Position numbers and translations under genes: made by a program. 64,000 bases of DNA, taken from contig MU053810.1 of assembly GCA_013239625.1 (NCBI GenBank), positions 3,504,071-3,568,070 of the forward strand, read 5' to 3'. This document shows positions 1 to 62,786 of this stretch, one piece after another. The stretch comes from Lama guanicoe. Taxonomy: Eukaryota. The notes beneath the pieces are model-generated. The model saw nothing but the letters and a program-made list of their open reading frames with translations, made no database searches and was not told the origin of the DNA. Position 1 is the stretch's first letter, and the number at the start of each line of letters is the position of its first letter.

Positions 1-818
1 TGACACCCCCGGGCCGCCCTTCCGCAGTCGGTGACTTCGGCCTGGCTCCCCAAGGTGGGGGAGGAGGTGTGGGGACCAAGACTCCCCGCCAAGCGGCTCG
101 TCAGCAGGCAGAGCGGCAGGGCGATGCAGGAGAGCAGCAGAGGAAGATGCTAAACACCAGTGCTGTATTTACACTGGCTTTTTCTTTGCCAAAAAGATCC
201 CGTGTGTCTAAGAACATTGCCTTTAAAGGAAAAAAAAAAAAACCTAAGCACTAAAACGCTGCCCAAAGCTCTCCGATCTCCAATATTCTCACCACCGTCC
301 CCGTGCGGGGAGCTTCCGGACGCTCCCAGCCTCGGACAGGTACACCTGCCAGACCGCGGAGGACCAGGCCGCCCCTGCCGCCCCCTCAGAGGAAGCGATC
401 GCCAGGAATCTGACCCCAACAGCCCCTGCCGAGGGTGACAGCCCAGGCGGAGTCGTGCCCTGCAAAAACTTCCCAGTTCCCGGGCTTTGGGGACAGATCC
501 GCCGCGAGCAGACGGACGGACTGGGGCCGACACTGGTACGGCCGCAAGGCTCAAACGGCAGATGGGACCCCTCCTCCTGCATCCAGCCCTAGGTCCAAGG
601 GAGTCCAAGTGGCACCCGGTGGCGCCGAGGGGTTGGAGCGCGGCGCGAGTCCGGGGGCACCGACGAGCCGCGGCGAGCGGGCAGCCCGGGAGGGCGAGCA
701 GGCAGAGGGCCCGGGGCCCCGCTCAGGCTCCCCGCCCCGCAGCAGCTGCAGCAGGAGGAGGAGGGGAGCGAGGAGGAAGAGGAGGAAAGGGACTGCGCGC
801 CGCAGCCGGAGCCCTTAC

Positions 819-5384: not shown

Positions 5385-5960
5385 CTTTTTTTTTAAACTT
5401 TTTTTTTGAGTTATAGTTATTTTACAATGTTGTGTCAAATTCCAGTGTAGTGCACAATTTCTCATTTGTACATGAACATACGTATATTCATTGTCACATT
5501 TTTTTCACTATGAGCTACCACAAGATCTTGTATATAGTTCCCTTTGCTATACAGTATAATCTCGTTTATCTGTTCTACATTTTGAAATCCCAGTCTGTCC
5601 ATTCCCACCCCCTGCCCCCTTGGCAACCACAAGTTTGTATTCTATGTCTATGAGTCCGTTTCTCTTTTGCATTTATGTTTTTTGGTTTTTTTAGATTCCA
5701 TATATGAGCAATCTCATATGGTATTTTTCCCTCTCTTTCTGGCTTACTTCACTTAGAATGACCTTCTCCAGGAACATCCATGTTGCTGCAAATGGCATTA
5801 TGTTGTCGGTTTTTATGGCTGAGTAGTATTCCATTGTATAAATATACCACATCTTCTTTATCCAGTCATCCATTGATGGACATTAGGCTATTTCCATGTC
5901 TTGGCTATTGTAAATAGTGCTGCTATGAACATTGGGGTGCAGGTGTCATTTTGAAGTAGG
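5385..5960 (-). mobile_element. 5'-truncated young L1 (ORF2 C-terminus, 3' UTR, poly-A)
   Basis: Minus-strand peptides PMFIAALFTIAKTWK and DWIKKMWYIYTMEYYSAIK...LSEVSQ match the L1 ORF2 C-terminus; T-rich tail at ~5386-5407. Confidence 0.92.
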
Positions 5961-10448: not shown

Positions 10449-10590
10449 GCAGGGAGGGTAGAGCTCAGTGGTAGAGATTATGCTTAGCATGCACAAGGTC
10501 CTGGGTTCAATCCCCAGCACCTCCATTAAAGTAACTAACTAAATAAATAAACCTAATTACCCCACCACCCACCAAAAACAAAAACTAAAA
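10449..10590 (+). mobile_element. tRNA-derived SINE (camelid Vic-1-like) with TSD
   Basis: GGGAGGGTAGAGCTCAGTGGTAGAG...GGTTCAATCCCCAG...AAATAAACCTAATTACC; flanked by aaaagtttagctcttg / aaaattcagctcttg. Confidence 0.9.
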
Positions 10591-18853: not shown

Positions 18854-19670
18854 TTTTGTTGTTATTTTGCTTTAACATTTTTAATTGATTTATAATCATA
18901 TTACAATGTTGTGTCAAATTCCAGTGTAGAGCACAATTTTTCAGTTATACATGAACATATATACTCATTGTAACATTTTTTTCTCTGTGAGCTACCATAA
19001 GATCTTGTATATATTTCCCTGTGGTAAACAGTATAATCTTGTTTATCTATTCTATAATTTTGAAGTCCCAGTCTATCTCTTCCCACCCCCCACCCCCTTG
19101 GCAACTACAAGTTTGTATTCTATGTCTGTGAGTCTATTTCTGTTTTGTACTTATGCTTTGTTTTCTTTTTTTTTCTTTTTAGATTCCACACATGAGCGAT
19201 CTCATATGGTATTTTTCTTTCTCTTTCTGGCTTACTTCACTTAGAATGACATTCTCCAGGAGCATCCATGTTGCTGCAAATGGTGTTATGTTGTCAGTTT
19301 TTATGGCTGAGTAGTATTCCATTGTATAAATATACCACATCTTCTTTATCCAGTCATCACCTCACACCAGTCAGAATGGCCATCATTCAAAAATCCATAA
19401 ATGACAAATGCTGGAGATGCTGTGGAGAAAAGGGAACCCTCCTTCACTGCTGGTTAAGAATGCAGTTTGGTGCAGCCACTGTGGAAAACAGTATGGAGAT
19501 TCCTCAAAAGACTAGGAATAGACTTACCGTATGACCCAGGAATCCCGCTCCTGGGCAAATATCCAGAAGGAACCCTACTTCAGGATGACACCTGCACCCG
19601 AATGTTCATAGCACATTATTTACAATAGCCAAGACGTGGAAACAGCCTAAATGTCCATCAACAGAAGACA
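18854..19670 (-). mobile_element. 5'-inverted (twin-primed) young L1 with 13-bp TSD
   Basis: Minus-strand 3' end with poly-A at 18854-19358, then plus-strand ORF2 piece (HLTPVRMAIIQKS..KCW) at 19356-19670. TSD gtccaaaatcttt at 18841-18853 and 19671-19683. Confidence 0.93.
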
Positions 19671-29732: not shown

Positions 29733-30240
29733 GCCCATTGACAGATGGATGGATAAAGAACATGTGGTATATATATATACACATATACACAAACAATGGA
29801 ATACAACTCAGCCATAAAAAGAATGACATAATGCCACTTGCAGCAACACGGATGGACCTAGAGATGATCATCCTAAGTGAAGTAAGTCAGACAGAGAAAG
29901 ACAAATATCATATGATATCACTTATACATGGAATCTAAAAAAAAAGATACAAATTTTATTTAGACTCTTGAACATAGAAAACAAACTATTGTTACCAAAG
30001 GGGAAAGGGTGGGGAGGGATAAATTAAGAGTTTGGGATTAATGATACACACTACTATATATAAAACAGATAAATAACAAAGATCTACTGTGTAGCCCAGG
30101 GAACCATATTCAATTTCTTGTATTAACATGTAATACAGAAAAAAAATGTATGTATATGTATAACTGAATTGCTTTGCTGTATACTTGAAACTAACATTGT
30201 AAATTAACTATACTTCAATAAAAAATAAATTTAAAAATAT
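29733..30240 (+). mobile_element. 5'-truncated L1 (ORF2 end plus 3' UTR)
   Basis: Peptide DGWIKNMWYI...MDLEMIILSEVSQTEKDKYHMISL; aataaa and A-rich tail at ~30217-30237. Confidence 0.9.
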
Positions 30241-30949: not shown

Positions 30950-31042
30950 TTATTAAAAAAAATTTAATGGAGGTACTGGGAATTGAACCCAGAACTTTGT
31001 GCCTGCTAAGCATGCACACTACCACTGAGCTATACCCTCCCC
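30950..31042 (-). mobile_element. tRNA-derived SINE (Vic-1-like)
   Basis: Reverse complement GGGGAGGGTATAGCTCAGTGGTAGTGTGCATGCTTAGCAGG...GGGTTCAATTCCCAGTACCTCC. Confidence 0.88.
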
Positions 31043-34723: not shown

Positions 34724-36428
34724 GATGGTGTTGGGAAAACTGGAAAGCAGCATGTAAATCAATGAAGTTAGAGCACTCCCTCACTCTCTACACAAAAATA
34801 AACTCAAAATGGTTTAAAGACTTAAATATAAGACAAAACATGACAAAAATCCTAGAAGAAAACAGAGGTAAAACATTCTCCGATATAAATCTTGGCAATT
34901 TTCTCCTAGGGCAGTCTACCCAGGCAGTAGAAATAAGACCGAAAATAAACAAATGGGACCTAATTAAACTTACATGCTTTCACACAGCAAAGAAAACCAT
35001 AAGCAAAACAAACCGACAGCCTACAGAATGGGAGAATGGGAGAAAATATTTGCAAATGATGCAACTGACAAAGGCTTAATCTCCAGAATATAAACAGCTC
35101 ATACAACTTAATGACAACAACAACAAAAATAACCCAATCCAAAAATGGGCAGAAGACCTAAACAAGAAATTCTCCAATGAGGACGTACATATGGCCAATA
35201 GACACATGAAAAAATGCTTAATATCACTAATTATCAGAGGGATGCAAATCAAAACTATAATGAGGTATCACCTCACACCATTCAGAATGGCCATCATTCA
35301 ATAGCCCATGAATGATAAATGCTGGAAAGGGTATAGAGAAAAGGGAACCCTCCTACGCTGCTCAGAGGAATGTAGTTTGGTGCAACCATTATGGAAAACA
35401 GTATGGAGAGTTCTCAAAAAACTAAAAATAGACTTACTATATGATCCAGCAATCCCACTTCTGGGTATATATCCAGAGGGAACTCTTATTGAAAAGATAC
35501 ACATACCCCAATATTCATAGCAGCACTATATACAATAGCCAAGACATGAAATCAACCTAAATGTCCATTTATTGACAGATGACTGGATAAAGAAGTTATG
35601 GTATATTTATACAATGGAATACTACTCAGCCATAAAAAAGAATAAAATAATGTTATTTGCAGCAACATGGTGGACCTGGAGCTCATCATTCTAAGTGAAG
35701 TAAGCCAGAAAGAGAAAGAAAAATACCATATATCACTTACATGTGGAATCTAATAAAAAAAAAGTAAAGAGACATAATGAACTTATTTACAAAACAGACT
35801 CACAGACATAGTAGACAATCTTATGAGGGGTTGAACCAATATGGCAGCCTAGAGAGACTCAAAGCCTACCCTTTTCCACAAACACATCAAGAATTACATC
35901 TACAAACCCACTGAATCACACAGAACACCTACTGAATTCTAGGGCAGAGGTCTCTTACTTCAAAATACAAGAGGAGTCTCACAAAATCCAATAAACAACA
36001 AGTTTATACTGTATAGCACAGGGAACTATATTCAATGTTTTGTAGTAACTAATGGTGAAAAAGAATATGAAAGTGAATATATGTATGTTCCTGTATGACG
36101 ATGCATTGTGATGTATACCAAAAATTGACACAACATTTTAAACTGACTTATATTGCAATTAAAAAAAAAAATCTTAATGGTTACCAGGGAAAGAGGGTGG
36201 GAAGGGATAAATCTGGGAGCTTGAGATTTACAAATGTTAGCCAGTATATATAAAAACATATTTAAAAAAAAAGTTTTTTCTGAATAGCACAAGGAACTAT
36301 GTTCAATCTTATAATAATCTTTAATAAAAAATATGAAAACAAATATATATATGTATATGCATGACTGGGACTTCGTGCTGTACACCAGAAATTGATACAT
36401 TGTAACTGATGGTACTTCAAAAAAAAGT
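34724..36428 (+). mobile_element. 5'-truncated L1 (ORF2 C-terminal part plus 3' UTR) hosting a nested element
   Basis: Peptides LTLYTKINSKWFKDLNIR..INKWDLIKL and [36 protein letters not shown] agagccaagaatt (34711-34723) / agaaccaagaatt (36429-36441). Confidence 0.93.
35826..36169 (+). mobile_element. Nested 344-bp bipartite L1-derived element (L1 5' UTR start joined to L1 3' UTR end, poly-A, TSD)
   Basis: 35826-35990 resembles an L1 5' terminus (..ccaatatggcag..cacaaacacatcaagaattacatctaca..cacagaacacctactgaa); 35991-36160 is L1 3' UTR. TSD aatcttatg / aatcttaatg. Confidence 0.8.
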
Positions 36429-38738
36429 AGAACCAAGAATTCAGATAATAAATGGGTCATTTAAACTATTTACTGATTTTTGTCTCTGCCCCATTTGGAT
36501 GCATTGCCTCACTGATTTTCTTTAACTGATGGCTTAAAAGACTTCAGCTCCCAGGATTTCCCTACATCAGGTTCTATCATATGCTGTTGATTGATTTGGG
36601 ATCATAATTGAGTAAAATAACAGGCCATAGAGAGAAGTGGACTTTGATGTTCTAGCAAGATGATTTCTATTGGGGGAGAATCACAGGCTGTAGAATTCAC
36701 TGACAGGAGTTCCACTGTGGCACAAAGGTCACTTAAGAGTTACTTCATAATTTTCCTGAGTGTCAGCCTCTGATCTGTATGTTGGGAACGAGGCAGCTAT
36801 TTCACGGCATTGTCATGAGGAGCACGTAAGATAAACATGGAAAGAGCCTAATGACCACAGTTCAGGACACCCAACATATAGGCCCTTTCCTCTCTTCTTT
36901 GAAACAGACTATTGGACTTGGTTTGGTTTCATGAAGTTATGCAAGGATCATACCCTCTGTTGATATTTGTTGTGTTCACTTCTGCGCTGACCTATTTTCA
37001 GGTCCAGAAATGCTACCTTCCACTTCCCCATTTGTTGGTCTCCTACCTCGTATTCCTGTCACCTCCTCCCTTTCTTCCAGTCCTGCCCCCTTTCCCAGCA
37101 TCCACCGAAAGAGTCAATTCACAGTGATCTCAATGCTTCTGAGGACCTCAGAGAAAAAAAGGTCTCAAAGGGAGGAATAAATACAATATGTTTAAAGCTG
37201 ACAATAAATTACTCAACTTCATCTCAAATTTTGCTCTGGGAAAAGTTTGACATGAAACGTTTGAAGAAACATGAAACAGATCCTAAAGGCAGACGATTTT
37301 TCAGAGTGAAAGGCAATTTTTTTTTTTCCAAGCTTCAAAGCAAAGGTTCCTTTTGTCATCTGCTTGATAGGTTATTTTTGACAGGATTTAACTTATGAAA
37401 TTGTTCCAATGCCCTTTAAAAGGGTCTGGGTACATGAGTGTGCCAGTGAAGATGATGAATGTTAGGTCTTAATTGAAAATCTAAAAAATATCCATGTGGC
37501 AAAAAGCGCAGGAAACACATTTGCTCTTTTGAGAAATTTCCAAAAATGAGTACCTTTTGTAGCACCGAATTTACACTCAAAATCAATAATAGGGTGATCT
37601 GAGAAATAAGCTAGGGAAAAATATACCTTCTGGATCAGTTTTCGTCTTAACATGTTCCTTGCAATTTTGATTCATCAAACCCTCCGAAGATGTCTTCTTG
37701 AATTTAGGCATTATTCTTTCTTATTTCATTAAGGACCTTAGTATATTACACCAATAAAGAGTAAATATACCTACGAAAATTACTAATAATGACTTACAAT
37801 AATAGAGAAACCAATTTTTTTTGCTACAGAAAAAAGTTGCTAGATTTTCAACATCATTTATAATTTCAAAAGTGTTCCATAAAATTACATTAAATTAAGA
37901 AGAAATTTAAGCAACTTTATGTATCTAAGCTGAAGGATTTTTCCAGTACCATGAAATAAGCTATACCTTAACTGCATAAACATTAACTAATGAAATATAA
38001 TTATTACAAAAATTTGAATAAAATAGAATTTTGGAAGGATTTAGAATTTCTAAAAAAATTTCATTTCTAAGCAACACTTTTACAACCACCATGTCAAGTG
38101 ATTGTCATTTCTTGTTCTGACTATATCTTAACTTCATACAAATTATGTTTCTGAAAAGTTGTCTTTATGTTTTGTTGTTGTAAGTGAAGTCATACAGTTG
38201 CACTAGAGAAGTGTGTTGTTTTTAAGACTCCATGGTATCTCATTTGGTAAAATGAGAATAGCTTCTACCTAAATATAAGTTTATGGCTCTGAATTTGTAC
38301 ACTGTGTGGGAGAGGGGGAGACAAGTTGGAGGGTAGAGAAGTAACATTGACTGATGACCCCTTTTGGGCCAGGTATCTCATTTAACCCCCGAAACAACCT
38401 GCAAACTGGATATTCTCACTACATTTTTATAGAAGAGGAAATCATTCAAGTCTACATAGTTAATGACAGAAAGAACATTCTGATTTTTGACAACAGGATT
38501 TGAATATTACATATGATTACATACATCTTTATTATGAAAAATTTCAAATAACTATAAATGTCCCTATCAACCTGATTAAACAATTATCAAGACTGATGTG
38601 TTGGCTTCATCTCTCCCTTTTTTTTTTTAACTTTTTTAATTTGCTGAAGTATTTTGAAGGGAACTCCCTGGGTGTCTCATTTTATATCTACATATGTCAG
38701 TATCTGTCTCTAAAAAATATGGACTTTAAATGCTATTA

Positions 38739-46399: not shown

Positions 46400-49300
46400 A
46401 GTTTGCACTGCAATCAAATCAGGGCATAACTTCCTTAAGGAGGCCTTTCACCACCTGGGAGGCTGTTCCTGTCTGGTGGGATGTGTGGACACCCTTCCAG
46501 GCTGGGTGGGAGCAAACACTAGCAGGCATCTGGAATTGCCTGCAGCTCGAGGCATTTGAGCAAAGTCTATTTACCAGTACTTGGTGGGCCAGGTTCCTCT
46601 GTGTTGAGTCCCCCCAGCCCTGCATCTGGAGAGGTCTGACAGCTGTCTTTGTGTTATTTTGAGCACAAATCACGCAATTCTGAGTGACTCTCTGCATGGT
46701 CTTGTGTAGGTTAGGCCCTGTTATATATTTTTGAATCCGTTGTAAGGTGACATCTCTCCTGCACAGCATCTAAGAGTAACTCAGAGGTCAAAATAGGTCC
46801 TTATCTGCTCCATTTCCAGCCAGGAGAGGTGCAATCAAGAGTGAAACCCCACTCTTTGGCCCTTTCTCTGATTTTTTCCTACAAAGGAGATCCCGACTCA
46901 CAAGAGGGATTGGACACTCTGACATATATAAGAATCTATGTTTCTGGGTGAGGTCCCCTATCTGGCATTCTGGAGGTTGCAAGAATGAATGATTTTGTAC
47001 TCCTCTAGAGACTTCCATGATGGGGATGGACTGAGATGTTTTCCGTGTCCCCTTGGTGTTTAGCACAGTGTCTGTTGCTCCTGCATCTATCAGAAAGTTA
47101 ATCCAGTTTATTCCCTGCTGTCAATTTCATCCAGGGCTCCGGTGGGGAAATTGAACTGGGCACCTCAAGTCCAAGGCCGCCCCTGGGCCTCTTCATTCAT
47201 CAAGAGTGTTCCTCTCTTTTCATCACACCAGAGGCGCCCATCTTTCTTTTGTTTTGCTTCCTGTTTAGTCTAGGGCAATCATTTTTCCAAAGCTGTTCTT
47301 CCTAATAGTAAGCACATTGCTCCTTCTCCAAGAGTGGCTTACCTCTCATTGGGTGACTTGCCTTTCAGGAATCTGATGCCCCAGCCAGAAAAATGGCATT
47401 CTGCTTTGCATCTTCCTTCTCCTGTCCTTGTCCCCTGTTGTTGAACATTTTAAAAGCAACATCTACCAGTTGAGAAGAGTTCATTCCAAATGCAGCATCT
47501 CATTTTTGCAGCCTTCTCCTGATACCTGAGGCACTCTGCCCAAAGGCCAAGTTTACCATTCTAGTATTTTGAGGGGCCTTGGGATAGGCATTAGTAAAAT
47601 GTCTGCAGACTGGATAAATCCTTTCCAAAAATTCAAAGGGGTCTTCGTTTCTCTCCCCCCACCCCCGCCACCCCTGAATTTCTTGAATTTTGTTCAAACT
47701 ATTTTGCTTTGTTTCCCCTTGTCAAAGCCCTGCCAAGATGCACTTTTAGTAGTGCTCTAATAAGGGCCTTCCTCCCTCACTGGGGTCCCATTTGGGTTCA
47801 GCTGTGGGTCCTGCCAAGTGGGCTTCAGTGTAGCACGTGGGTCTGTTAGGTGGGGCTGGTGTGCTTCTTCCCCGACCTTCTCAGTGACCTTTCTACCCCA
47901 TCATATTGAGAAGAACGTATGTGTCTGCTCACGAAGGGTGGTGGGTAGCAGAAATTGAAGTGAACAATTCTGTCAGTTGGAGAGGATTCTCCCTATAATG
48001 AGGGTTGTGATCTTTCCAATTAGACACGTCTGAGGTGGAGAAAGGACTCTGCATCCAAAGAAACCCAGCTGGCTGGCCATCTGCATTTAGGCTCCCTACT
48101 GGATGATGGCTAAAGGGAAATTGCCCTGCCCTGGGAGTGGCTTCTGTTGGGTCTTAAGTGGCAATACCAGACCAGGTCCCTATGCCTCAGAAACTAACAC
48201 AAGATTTTCAAATTGGTCCCTATAAGGAGGCGGAGCCAGTAGGACAACTCCCTGAGCCGCAGGGTCTGGATGGGGGCTGGATAGGAACAGGCGGCAGTGG
48301 AAGGGGTGGATATACTGGCAAAATGGCTGGAGCACCTGGGACAGCCAGCTCGGCTGGAGGATAAAGTGACATAGCCTCATCCTCGCTCCCTTTCTCTTCT
48401 TCCCACAGGACAGAGTTTTCCTTTTGCCACAAGGTGACAACTGTCTGACTTTGTGCCACCCTGATGTAATAGCACAAAGTCCTGCTCAGAGAGGATTTCA
48501 TCATCCTCCCCGGTTTCTTCACAGAATAGCTATAGAGCCATTCAAAGGCCACTGTAAAACCATAAATAGCAATTGATCATCTCTAACCATTCAAAGGATG
48601 CCTTTTTGCCTTGGCAGCAACCGACCAGACTGAATCCTGGGCTGGAGCTTTTGGTGACTTTAGGAACCAAGTGTAGCCTTTCTCTTCTCCCTGGGAGTGT
48701 CCCACTTTTGGACAAGAACAGACAGGTTTCTTGGTTGTCTCCATTTGACATGAGTCTGTAAAGGAAGAAATGGTGCCAAAACAAAATGAAGTGAAAAACT
48801 CAAAGAACAAACCAAAAACCTTAAATAAACCCTCAAATTTGGTCTTGGGGTTTTACGCATCACAAGAACCATCATCTCAACCCCCCGTGCCAGGTAAGTC
48901 CTTGGAGAGCTGTCCGATCCAGACCAACGACACAGGAGACTGCAAAGGACATAACACAGTAGGAGTGACAGGACATGGTGCACTGGGTCTCAAGATAACC
49001 TTGCCTACACCCCTTGTGGAGATCCCAACAGGTACTGTGGCCACACGTTGTTAAATACCAGAAAAACAAAACACGAACAGTGCACACAAATGCTAGCATC
49101 CCAAGGAAAGACCAACCAGTTGACAAAGTGGGTAAAAGTTCAGCTTGTTTCCTCTCTCCACCAGTGTACCCTACTCAATTACAAAACAAATTGGCTTCGT
49201 TCAGAGAAAAAACAAAAAACAAAAAAACCCCTCCCAAACAGAGAGGAAATAAAGTTTTCAGCTATACACATGGGGGTGACTTATCCTACTGTATGGAGTC

Positions 49301-49477
49301 CGGCTGCCCCCTCCAACTGCCAAGTGCTGGGGCAGCCAGTGCCACCTGGGGGAATTCTGAAGGGCAGACCCTCAGGACAAGTGGTCCTAGCAGCTGCAAG
49401 GGCCTTACTCAAAAATCCTCCTATCCGGGGCCAGCTGGCCATGAGCAGCAAGACTCCTGGCTGGCTTCTCCAAAATT
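46400..49477 (-). mobile_element. Degenerate ERV1 (gamma-like) internal region: PBS, gag, protease, partial integrase; RT/RNase H absent
   Basis: Gag capsid MHR EDPFEFLERI..GQSASGIRRRLQK (47500-47650); degenerate zinc knuckle QCAYY*EEQLWKNDCP (~47273-47322); protease FLIDAGAT..VLNT and PIPLVSRDLL (46880-47100); integrase CVICAQNN, W*IDF, TASQVVKGLLKEVMP (46420-46700). Confidence 0.9.
49452..49472 (-). other. Retroviral primer-binding site complementary to tRNA-Arg
   Basis: Plus strand gactcctggctggcttctcca resembles the tRNA-Arg(ACG) 3' end GACTCCTGGCTGGCTCGCCA; lies 5 nt inside the LTR end (..GGTAACA on minus). Confidence 0.8.
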
Positions 49478-50082
49478 TGTTACCAAGTCCAAGCTGCTTT
49501 TCTCATGACAGGTCAATCAATTGCGAGGTGAGGCATTGGGGTGAAAATCAGTGACATTATTCCAAAAGCCAGCAGACCGAGAAGACAGCTGAGTACCATC
49601 CTAAAGAACCATCTTTCCCGAGTTACAGCTCAGGCTTCTTTACACCAAAAGGGGCGGGGATCAAGTCCTGCTTCCAGTCAGCCTCTGGAAGGGGTGTGTT
49701 CATTACTTTCTGCCTGCAGCCATTCACAGTTGGGCCTGGCCAGGATGTTTCCTGGGAACTAAACAAAGGTACTTTCACTTAACACTCATTACCTGGGAGG
49801 CAAGGTTCCCAAAGATGTGCTATTATGTATAATTTAAACTTACAGCCTACATCCCTTTAGTGATTAACTTGTAATAAGGGGAGAGGGTATAGCTCAACAT
49901 GGTAGAGTACATGCTTAGCGTGTATGAGGTCCCGGGTTCAATCCCCAGTACCTCCTCTTAAAAAAAAAAAGTAAAGAAATAAACCTAATTACCTCCCTCC
50001 CCTCAAATAAACCTAAAAAAAAGTAAAATCAATCTATTAAAAAAAAACTTGTAATAGACTACAAAAGTTCTTCCCTATTATA
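49478..50082 (-). mobile_element. 5' LTR of the ERV1 provirus, interrupted by a SINE
   Basis: Abuts the PBS and ends ..TAACA on the minus strand; outer boundary (~50082) inferred. Confidence 0.7.
49878..50045 (+). mobile_element. tRNA-derived SINE (Vic-1-like) nested in the LTR
   Basis: GGGGAGAGGGTATAGCTCAACATGGTAGAG..GGGTTCAATCCCCAGTACC; TSD aacttgtaata at 49866-49876 and 50046-50056. Confidence 0.92.
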
Positions 50083-60362: not shown

Positions 60363-62786
60363 CTTTTCTTTTTTTTTTAAACTAGACTTTTTTATTTGTA
60401 CATTATAGATACACACTGTTCCCACTGTGTTCTAATTTATCAAAAATGGATTATCTTTAGAGATGTCTCAATTGGTTCAGTACTTGAAAGGTGAACTTTG
60501 TGACCAAGGAAGGTCCTGGGCCAGAGATGCAGGAGGTTTCCTTGACCCCCCTCACAGACGGCCTCCCCCAGGTGGCCATCTGCGTGCCTGGCCCTTGTCC
60601 AGGGAGCCCTTGTACTGTCCCTGTTACACTCTGTAAAGAGTTGCTGAAGCCTATACTCAGCTCCACTGAGGCAGAGCGGTGTTGGCAGATTTCAAAGGCC
60701 AGGGACAGCCCCCCAGGTGCAGCACAGAGGCCCTGTTCCCGATGGAGGGGCCCCAGCTGCCACCTGACAGGGAGAGCAGAGTGTCTGTGTCCTGAGGGAC
60801 ACTTGGGATCTTTGAGTAGAGTTTGTTGGCTCTGAAGTGGGGCCTGAGCTTCTTCATTGTGAGGAGAGCAGGGTGCTCCATCCATGGGCCCCCAGGAAGT
60901 GGGGTGAGCTTCAGTCCACGGTGCCTCCGCTGAGCCCCAGCCCCAAGCCCACCTCTGGTCAGGACACCACGCTCGCTCTTGGGTTTTTACTGGACCCCAA
61001 AGGGGCTGGGGTCCGCCCTAGGTGGGCTGCACCACTCCATCAGGAAGTGCTCCAGAAAGTGCTCCAGGTCGTCACAGAGGCTGTCGGAGCTGGACAGGCA
61101 GAGGCTGAGGCTGCCGCTGTCCAGGGAAGACATGCCTTCACGCTCCACGCCCTCCAGGTATGCCCGGCACAGCCACGGCTCCAGCTTCACGAGGACCAGG
61201 TTCTTCTTGGGCCTCCCCACTGACAGGTCCTGGCCAAAGCCCAGGTAGATGGTGTATTGTGGGAAGCCTCGGCGCTGGCAGACACGGAACTCCCCCAGCT
61301 CTTGAAAGAAGGTGCTCAAGTCAAAGATGGGGGTGTTGCAGTCCCGGGGCAGCAGGCAGGCTGGGGTGGAGGGGCTGGCAGAGCCCAGGGGCCCACCCAC
61401 TTCCCAGTAGACTTTGCACTTCCCCTGGCGCCGGGCCCACAGCCAGGGCCCCCGGAGCTCCAGCTGCAGGCTGGGGGCCATGTGCTGCTGCAGCTTCTCT
61501 GTGTAGTGGGCTGCTTCTGGTCAGGCAGCTCATCGGGGCTGGGGAAGGCCACACGCTGGGGCTCTGCAGCCTCAGCGGCCAGGCTGGGGGAGCCGTACAG
61601 GAGCACGCAGCCCGGGCGCCCCACCGCCTCCTGCTGCACTGTTCGGCCCTTGTACGTGATGGTCAAGTCAGGGCCTCCAGGCCGGGCTCTGCATGCAGAC
61701 AGAGCTGTGAGCAGCTGGGACCAGCCGGGTGCCCACCTGCCGTTGGGGTGCAGGCACCAGGGGAGGATGTGGTGCCAAGCTCCACCTCTGGGAGCTGCCA
61801 GGGCTCTGGGGCCAGGGGTGGGCCTGCAGCAGGAGCCTCTAGGGGGATCGGATCCACCCCCAATACAGCTTTCAACAGATGGTCGTCCAGGGAGCTCTGC
61901 TATAAAGCCTAGAGCAAGAGGTCCTCAGCATGTCCAGCTGGGTTTGCGGTGCAGGGTTCAGGGCTTAGCCAGGCCAGTTCATGCCCTGGTCTCTCACCAG
62001 TATCTGCTGCCAAGCATGGCCCAGGAAGCCCATCCCTTGTGGGTGGGGCATCTTCAAGGGCTTTGTCCTCCCCCTGGTTAATGCCTGGGCCTTCTCCGCA
62101 CCTCACCTCAGGGCTGATCACATACACCTTATGCGGGCCGGTAGGGTCTGCTGAGTTGTCTTGCAACATCACGAGTGCTTTGCAAGGCGTAGGGGAAGTT
62201 GGTTTTCCAGGAGGCTCGGAGCGCACCCTCGTTGGTTGGCCGGGCACCACTGCTGCAGGGCGGCCAGCTGCCGCAGGCCACGGCCCAGGCCTTAAAGATG
62301 CGAGAATTCGCCTCACCCAGGTCCTTTTGCACAAAGTGCCTCCAGGGAACGCGGAAGTGTGTTCAGGCCGCATCCAGCCACCGCAGCTCCTCACAGCGGT
62401 CACTGATGACCTCGGCCAGAAGCCGGTTTCCGAGGAGCACACATGGGGCCCCACTGTCCTGAGCCATGGCCATGCTCCCTCTGCAGGGGCTGGGCGGGGA
62501 GGGGCGAGGGTTGTGGTCACGGGCGCAGAGTCAGGAATTACCGCAGGTGAGAAGGTTGCGAGGGTGGCCAGATGTCACCGGTGTTGAGGGCTACAGACGG
62601 GAATTGAGGGCTGATGGCCACGACGTTGTCCAGGTGTGAGTCCTGGCCAAGGCGGTGATAGGTGTGACTACAGATGCTGCGAGCGCACGCACAAGGGGCG
62701 ACAGGTGCAGAGCCGGCCTCTGGGCAGGCCTTGCGGGGCCACTACGGAGCTGGTGCAGGAACAGATGGAGCAGGAAATCTCGTCCC
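60363..62786 (-). pseudogene. IRF7: IRF7 processed pseudogene (5' UTR, intronless disabled CDS ~62473-61018, long 3' UTR, poly-A)
   Basis: DBD motifs LRWLDAA*THFRVPWRHF..RIFKAWAVA..WKTNF..DPTGPHKVY; IAD motifs TITYKGRTV, FPSPDELPDQKQ, KCKVYWEVGGP, YTIYLGFGQDLS..LVLVKLEPWLCR..SSLDSGSLSLCLSS. No coding introns. Stops at 62363-5, 61909-11, 61900-2; frameshifts near 62170, 61668, 61509, 61034. AATAAA at 60396-60391, poly-A, TSD cttcattttcttt (60350-62) / cttctttttcttt (62787-99). Confidence 0.96.

Follow-up and report, generated by a model that had tools for sequence, protein, structure and literature searches.

An ORF-less insert made of the two ends of L1 in the guanaco genome: a candidate product of 5'UTR-to-3'UTR splicing

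The insert and its host L1

The window analysed in this study is the whole 64-kb stretch of DNA from Lama guanicoe. At 819-962 on the reverse strand, a first coding exon, presumably that of PIP4K2A, lies within a CpG island. An intron-poor, frameshifted copy of IRF7 with a Pfam IRF-3 domain (E 1e-23) occupies 60990-62600 on the reverse strand; its best matches are Camelus proteins (89% and 87%), with other mammals at 85% and lower, and it is probably a processed pseudogene. The window also contains the remains of a decayed retrovirus, with pieces of the protease and of the integrase zinc finger (46400-49500, reverse strand), and three SINE-like elements with a tRNA-Ala head and A-rich tails (10454-10525, forward; 30968-31039, reverse; 49883-49957, forward), which are probably of the camelid vic-1/ALPINE type.

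The subject of this study is a 344-nt insert at 35826-36169, which is a separate retro-insertion within the 3'UTR of an older L1. The parts of the insert and of its host are listed below.

34726-35816, forward: upstream part of the host L1, with the frameshifted ORF2 C-terminus and the start of the 3'UTR, assigned by ORF2p matches
35817-35825, forward: left target-site duplication, AATCTTATG
35826-35990, forward: 5' part of the insert, 165 nt, putative exon 1, from the very 5' end of an L1 5'UTR; colinear from the element start with five metagenome contigs (L002-L006), with start motifs as in the pig L1B consensus
35838-35847, forward: decayed version of the AAGATGG motif that is conserved at L1 5' ends, from the alignment to L1-type 5' ends
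35989-35992, forward: junction 35990/35991, where the window reads CCA/ATAAAC, from the window sequence and the contig letter table
35991-36160, forward: 3' part of the insert, 170 nt, last segment of an L1 3'UTR, putative exon 2
36161-36169, forward: poly-A remnant of nine A's, with ATTAAA at 36158
36170-36179, forward: right target-site duplication, AATCTTAATG, with one extra A
36180-36427, forward: remaining 3'UTR and A-tail of the host L1, aligned to the window tails, whose own tail motif has no preceding AG

An earlier note on this DNA described a separate 344-bp insert with its own poly-A and target-site duplication inside the host 3'UTR, and this description holds. Nine A's end the insert, its two flanking duplications (9 and 10 bp) differ by one base, and a single pair of them encloses both halves. 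If the insert is taken out, the host can be aligned colinearly with three other L1 tails in the window. These hallmarks of one retrotransposed unit were read for this copy. The target site, AC/AATC, is non-canonical for the L1 endonuclease. The AAGATGG motif is one that we take to be a YY1-type initiator. Two stop-free frames of the host L1 correspond to human ORF2p residues of about 935-1038 (E 3e-32) and 1054-1122 (E 2e-22) in a PDB search with two pieces; Pfam recognised none of four host ORF2 pieces. We rejected a local tandem duplication of the host tail, because the insert tail resembles the other tails (75-76%) at least as much as it does the host tail (72-76%).

The insert contains no open reading frame. 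Rfam gave no match inside it and two sub-threshold matches nearby. ARAGORN found no tRNA head in it, there are no A/B box motifs or other pol III boxes, and its predicted RNA fold is no better than that of shuffled sequences (z = +0.96). No host function of the insert is evident. Sampled words of 35800-37400 were present at 64-73% in 16 public runs from five organisms (A-E); the RNA runs that match this region are contig runs with 6-10% of the sampled words. A listed contig matches 35800-35914 with no differences in two of four runs (X5 and X8), and the insertion is therefore not an assembly artefact.

L1 origin of the two halves and the sequences at their junction

Metagenome contigs were scanned with a 26-base motif from the 5' part, which yielded five contigs (L002-L006). 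In each of them, DNA of unrelated sequence precedes a purine-rich start, which leads into a long GC-rich body (over 1 kb of 5'UTR). The 5' part of the insert aligns from its first bases to the starts of these contigs, with 99-104 identities over 149-157 nt and local scores of 118-125 against shuffle maxima of 86-100. When the search motif was omitted, none of 500 shuffles reached the score of the upstream 70 nt for any of the five contigs. The downstream 54 nt are weaker, with 29-30 of 51-52 positions identical and scores reached by 0, 4, 6, 8 and 34 of 500 shuffles in the five contigs; the match is not significant for L004. No other copy of the 165-nt 5' part was found elsewhere in the window. 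As a separate feature, the conserved 5' motif of L006 contains a stretch of about 43 nt that is duplicated in tandem, at about 286-372 (reverse strand of the locus).

Since L002-L006 end before ORF1, the L1 identity of the 5' part rests on the match to pig consensus starts and on the GC-rich body rather than on an ORF. In the pig, six of the 12 L1B subfamilies have consensus starts with the motif, and all six read CATAACTGG/GTAGAA at the junction position (supplement 1, PMC6501411); L1B5 has a 2-nt deletion upstream of this position, and L1B6 has GAC at the anchor used for counting. In the excerpts of PMC6501411 used here, pig L1B elements are 5975-7740 bp long with both ORF1 and ORF2. The same start and the same GT in these consensus sequences thus establish the L1 origin of the 5' part, which the earlier note had described as resembling laurasiatherian L1 5'UTRs.

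The position homologous to the junction was counted from the local anchor CAAGA + 7 + CAC + 8; L004 has CTG for CAC. At this position, L002, L003, L004, and L006 read GT (GTAGGG three times and GTAAGA once), and L005 reads GC. Together with the pig sequences, the dinucleotide is GT in 10 of 11 related 5' ends and GT or GC in all 11, all belonging to L1s of other mammals. The putative donor is old, being found at this position both in pig and in a second mammal. A GT donor in the camelid parent L1 is suggested by these relatives, which are about 65% identical. The GT that the earlier note predicted directly after 35990 is thus present at the homologous position in other mammals; no camelid loose end behind 35990 occurs among the 24 rows listed (362 further). 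G at 35991 in 10-15% of the depth fits a GTAA continuation, as do pieces stopping at 35994 (one with 37 unaligned letters behind), neither of them tied to full-length L1s.

The 3' half is an L1 tail. The stretch 35991-36169 is 69-76% identical to the four L1 tails of the window, which bears out its earlier assignment to the L1 3'UTR. Three of these tails have AG directly before the tail motif; the exception is the host's own tail. The third copy below was absent from the earlier note, which had named the other two correctly.

30049-30074, forward: comparison L1 tail, AAAACAG/ATAAAT, with AG at 30067-68
19041-19066, reverse: comparison L1 tail, AGAATAG/ATAAAC, with AG at 19047-48
5564-5589, reverse: comparison L1 tail, AGAACAG/ATAAAC, with AG at 5570-71

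The second of these L1s has an oppositely oriented ORF2 piece on its 5' side (about 19358-19500), an inversion resembling twin priming.

In the public runs, 690, 692, 732, and 762 contigs per run (four runs) start to match at 35991, and their loose-end consensus ends in AAAATAG. A candidate branch point, TACTAAC, appears in the consensus of five groups of loose ends: in one (X15, 197 contigs) it is 17 nt upstream of the AG, and in the other four (167-199 contigs) it occupies the corresponding position. The largest loose-end groups have TACAAAC instead, and agreement within the loose-end consensus sequences is just 0.55-0.58. For comparison, CTAAC lies 18-45 nt ahead of 124 of the 8753 AGs in the window, and TACTAAC ahead of two. 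No polypyrimidine tract is present at this 3'UTR acceptor, which is A/T-rich. Pig L1 tails have TGG where camelid tails have AG, and they are without TACTAAC (all three consensus tails listed and one more). From the presence of AG and TACTAAC in camelid tails and of neither in the pig tails examined, we infer that camelid L1s gained a candidate 3'UTR acceptor.

Recurrence of the junction and copy number

Contigs of four runs (organisms A, B, D, and E) were aligned to 35800-36030 at 80%. Among the 32 pieces listed (25,245 further), nine span the junction with at least 31 letters on each side and comprise five distinct sequences, and nine further listed pieces span it with 25-30 letters on the right. 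The junction-spanning pieces differ from the window at 11-24 letters, three of them carry 295, 365, and 2985 letters of other upstream sequence, and several recur at identical coordinates in different organisms, with aligned lengths of up to 170 letters. The same junction thus lies at independent loci; the 5' start, poly-A, and target-site duplication were read for the window copy alone. The recurrence for which the earlier note proposed a search of other camelid genomes was found in all four runs.

Letters specific to this family support the same result. The family letter at 35976 was found in 42, 31, 38, and 44 contigs of the four runs, and that at 35970 in 33-40 contigs per run. G at 35990 was present in 30, 22, 26, and 38 contigs and made up 33-43% of the depth, and T at 35989 made up 15-20%. 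These two letters are the products of a decayed CpG, and the older junction therefore read CCG/ATAAAC. At 11 or more of 129 positions (40 rows listed, 13 further), the window copy does not carry the majority letter, suggesting that the family is old rather than recent. Two other joints, 35901-35997 and 35936-36003, which skip 95 and 66 letters, appear as single contigs in four of four and three of four runs, respectively; these are either chance alignments or variants of single loci that have lost more sequence across the junction.

At 35991, the ratio of summed depth to single-copy depth is 156-261 equivalents, and at 35976 it is 135-217. The middle of the 5' part (35896-35903) reaches 1469-2006 equivalents, which is an upper bound that includes the 5' ends of full-length L1s, and the L1 tails adjoining the junction reach about 10^5. 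Summed contig depth is not the same as copy number, and the single-copy depth of X8 was set from piece depths. It is safe to state that copies with this junction number on the order of 10^2 loci, at roughly 150-250 copy-equivalents.

These numbers bear on the reading of the insert as a one-off chimera of a 5'-truncated L1 tail beside an L1 5' fragment, or as an artefact, with the apparent family inflated by the alignment of A-rich repeats at 80%. With some 10^5 tail equivalents next to the junction, a few tails might extend leftwards into it. However, the family-specific letters stand 14-20 nt to the left of the junction in dozens of contigs per run, pieces with long alignments span it at other loci with the same coordinates across organisms, one duplication pair encloses both halves, and the window locus is matched without differences across its 5' boundary in two runs. 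The junction contigs have already largely refuted this reading, which we regard as scarcely credible.

Proposed origin by splicing and relation to known elements

It is likely, judging from the sequences at the junction, that the 344-nt insert arose by 5'UTR-to-3'UTR splicing of an L1 RNA and was then mobilised in trans. Of all dinucleotides in the window, 5.1% are GT and 6.8% are AG, and their joint occurrence at fixed positions has a chance of about 0.35%, or perhaps 1% with a slide of a base or two. The breakpoints share one base only (G), as in any G/GT..AG/ splice. We therefore read the element as a putative exon 1 of 165 nt joined to a putative exon 2 of 170 nt, and the splice interpretation of the earlier note is supported.

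In the proposed pathway, transcription of a camelid L1 would start at its internal 5' promoter, and splicing of the RNA would join a GT donor some 165 nt into the 5'UTR to an AG acceptor that lies about 170 nt upstream of the poly-A. A single intron of several kb, comprising the remaining 5'UTR, ORF1, ORF2, and the start of the 3'UTR, would thereby be removed. What is left, a poly-adenylated RNA of 340 nt without an ORF, would borrow ORF1p and ORF2p of intact L1s, and target-primed reverse transcription would insert it, in this case into an older L1's 3'UTR. The same junction would have been inserted many times, at an order of 10^2 loci. Given the age of the donor, it was probably the gain of the acceptor and of the candidate TACTAAC branch point that opened this splice path. 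Trans-mobilisation of poly-A RNAs by L1 proteins is an established process (PMC5860796).

An origin without splicing would involve a DNA deletion, or a jump of reverse transcriptase from 3'UTR to 5'UTR, in one L1, followed by amplification of this founder in trans, with GT and AG being coincidental. Internal deletion is the reported route to bipartite LINEs in the excerpts of PMC5786205 used here, and one founding event accounts equally well for an identical junction. In line with this origin, the acceptor has no polypyrimidine tract and no camelid donor appears among the loose-end rows listed. The earlier note had named microhomology at the breakpoints as a sign of such an event; beyond the single shared G, there is a weak similarity, AAAAT a few bases upstream of both breakpoints, which could aid a template switch. 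However, copies retain the CCG of the 5' side up to the tail motif, and the break therefore did not occur inside the AAAAT match. The GT or GC in all 11 related 5' ends (GT in 10) coincides with AG in the camelid tails, with the low chance given above, and a branch-point motif lies at the usual distance. We consider this origin improbable.

The splice origin leaves two ways in which the copies could have multiplied. On the evidence at hand, the chances are even that most copies come from repeated splicing of active L1 RNA. Alternatively, one or a few mini elements may have been transcribed anew, from their 165-nt 5' end or a neighbouring promoter, and have given rise to most copies in the manner of a SINE-like non-autonomous family driven by polymerase II; only the amplification step sets this course apart from repeated splicing, and it is possible, if doubtful. 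In its favour, there are many copies for an RNA that must obtain both proteins in trans (roughly 150-250 equivalents, compared with 11 human 5'UTR/ORF1 copies, which need ORF1p alone in trans, and 131 in all three human classes; excerpts of PMC5860796), the extreme 5' end is retained as in bipartite non-autonomous LINEs (excerpts of PMC5786205), and the depth of the middle 5' part is high, as an upper bound that includes full-length L1s. However, the corresponding human elements lose promoter strength and are described as dead ends (excerpts of PMC5860796), most of the GC-rich 5'UTR is gone from the insert, and there is neither a special RNA fold nor a pol III box. A tentative course of events would be that a camelid L1 gained a 3'UTR branch point and acceptor, and that one splice gave rise to a 340-nt polymerase II-driven, ORF-less parasite whose own copies served as the source of its amplification to hundreds of loci, about 2000 at most.

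The human elements in question are SpIREs, spliced integrated retrotransposed elements of L1 (Larson et al. 2018, PMC5860796). According to the excerpts used here, they are spliced within the 5'UTR or from the 5'UTR to ORF1, and they comprise 131 copies in total, with 11 in the class that needs ORF1p in trans. Similar to SpIREs, the insert starts at the L1 5' terminus, retrotransposition would have followed splicing of the L1 RNA at a donor close to its 5' end, an identical junction occurs at many loci, and L1 sequence change would have created new splice paths. The insert lies outside all of the described SpIRE classes, which keep ORF2, whereas the camelid element has a 3'UTR acceptor, neither ORF, and a unit of 340 nt. 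Even though it depends on both proteins in trans, the camelid element has a copy number that equals or exceeds that of SpIREs.

Bipartite ORF-less non-autonomous LINEs include Bov-A, RTESINE1/2, WALLSI3, RIME, NARTc, Vingi derivatives, and R2 derivatives (Kojima 2018, PMC5786205). In the excerpts of that paper used here, they are reported only from the RTE, Ingi, Vingi, and R2 clades and by internal deletion; the string 'splic' is absent from its text. The insert resembles them in consisting only of 5' and 3' LINE ends, in lacking an ORF, and in its presumed mobilisation in trans. Unlike them, both of its halves are L1, which is outside these four clades, and its breakpoints are putative splice sites. 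HAL1 (half-L1), an L1-derived non-autonomous element that is without ORF2 and keeps ORF1 (excerpts of PMC5786205), shares with the insert the L1 origin and the loss of ORF2, whereas the insert is also without ORF1.

Camelid names in Repbase include ALPINE1 (about 127 nt) and SINE_VV (about 101 nt) of the SINE2 class and L1-1/2/3_Vpa (supplement 4 of PMC6726744, in part), and vic-1 is a short camelid element of the SINE2/tRNA type (excerpts of PMC3531059). ALPINE1, SINE_VV, and vic-1 are thus short SINE2/tRNA-type elements, whereas the insert has no tRNA head. L1-1/2/3_Vpa are the likely source of both halves. A 340-nt family of L1 ends is not among the 15 of 138 'Vpa' and 15 of 32 'ALPINE' places listed in supplement 4 of PMC6726744. 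As catalogue entries for the insert, we rejected ALPINE, since ALPINE1 is a 127-nt SINE2, and LSINE, which has no relevant use among the literature matches listed or in the portion of that supplement consulted. No such family is named in the main-text excerpts of the camelid survey PMC8605555, whose supplementary libraries may contain one, and the excerpts of PMC3183009, PMC4494074, PMC7805219, PMC13756887, and bioRxiv 2025.02.02.635956 hold nothing specific on it. Our literature search, beyond which lie Repbase, Dfam, and subscription journals, found no description of a spliced ORF-less mini-L1 family; it may already be catalogued in Repbase or Dfam. In two contig collections, the 5' motif matched no stretch of viral_contigs and one of genome_contigs, a chance match inside a bacterial gene, and the junction patterns matched neither. 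Because these collections hold little mammalian DNA, the zero matches are uninformative for camelids.

The proposed origin would extend L1 self-splicing from small cuts in the 5'UTR to the loss of the whole coding body. RNAs that need both L1 proteins in trans would have been fixed at a scale comparable to or above that of all human SpIREs, which bears on the strictness of L1 cis preference and on the origin of SINE-like elements without a pol III head. If copies were re-amplified, the 165 nt would define a minimal laurasiatherian L1 promoter, and the family would be a bipartite non-autonomous family of the L1 clade born by splicing and not by deletion. This would contradict both the view of SpIREs as dead ends and the view that L1 gives no ORF-less bipartite families. 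Repeat annotation would split mini-L1s into two L1 fragments, and they may therefore be overlooked in many genomes. Camelid-specific mini-L1 insertions with target-site duplications would also serve as phylogenetic markers.
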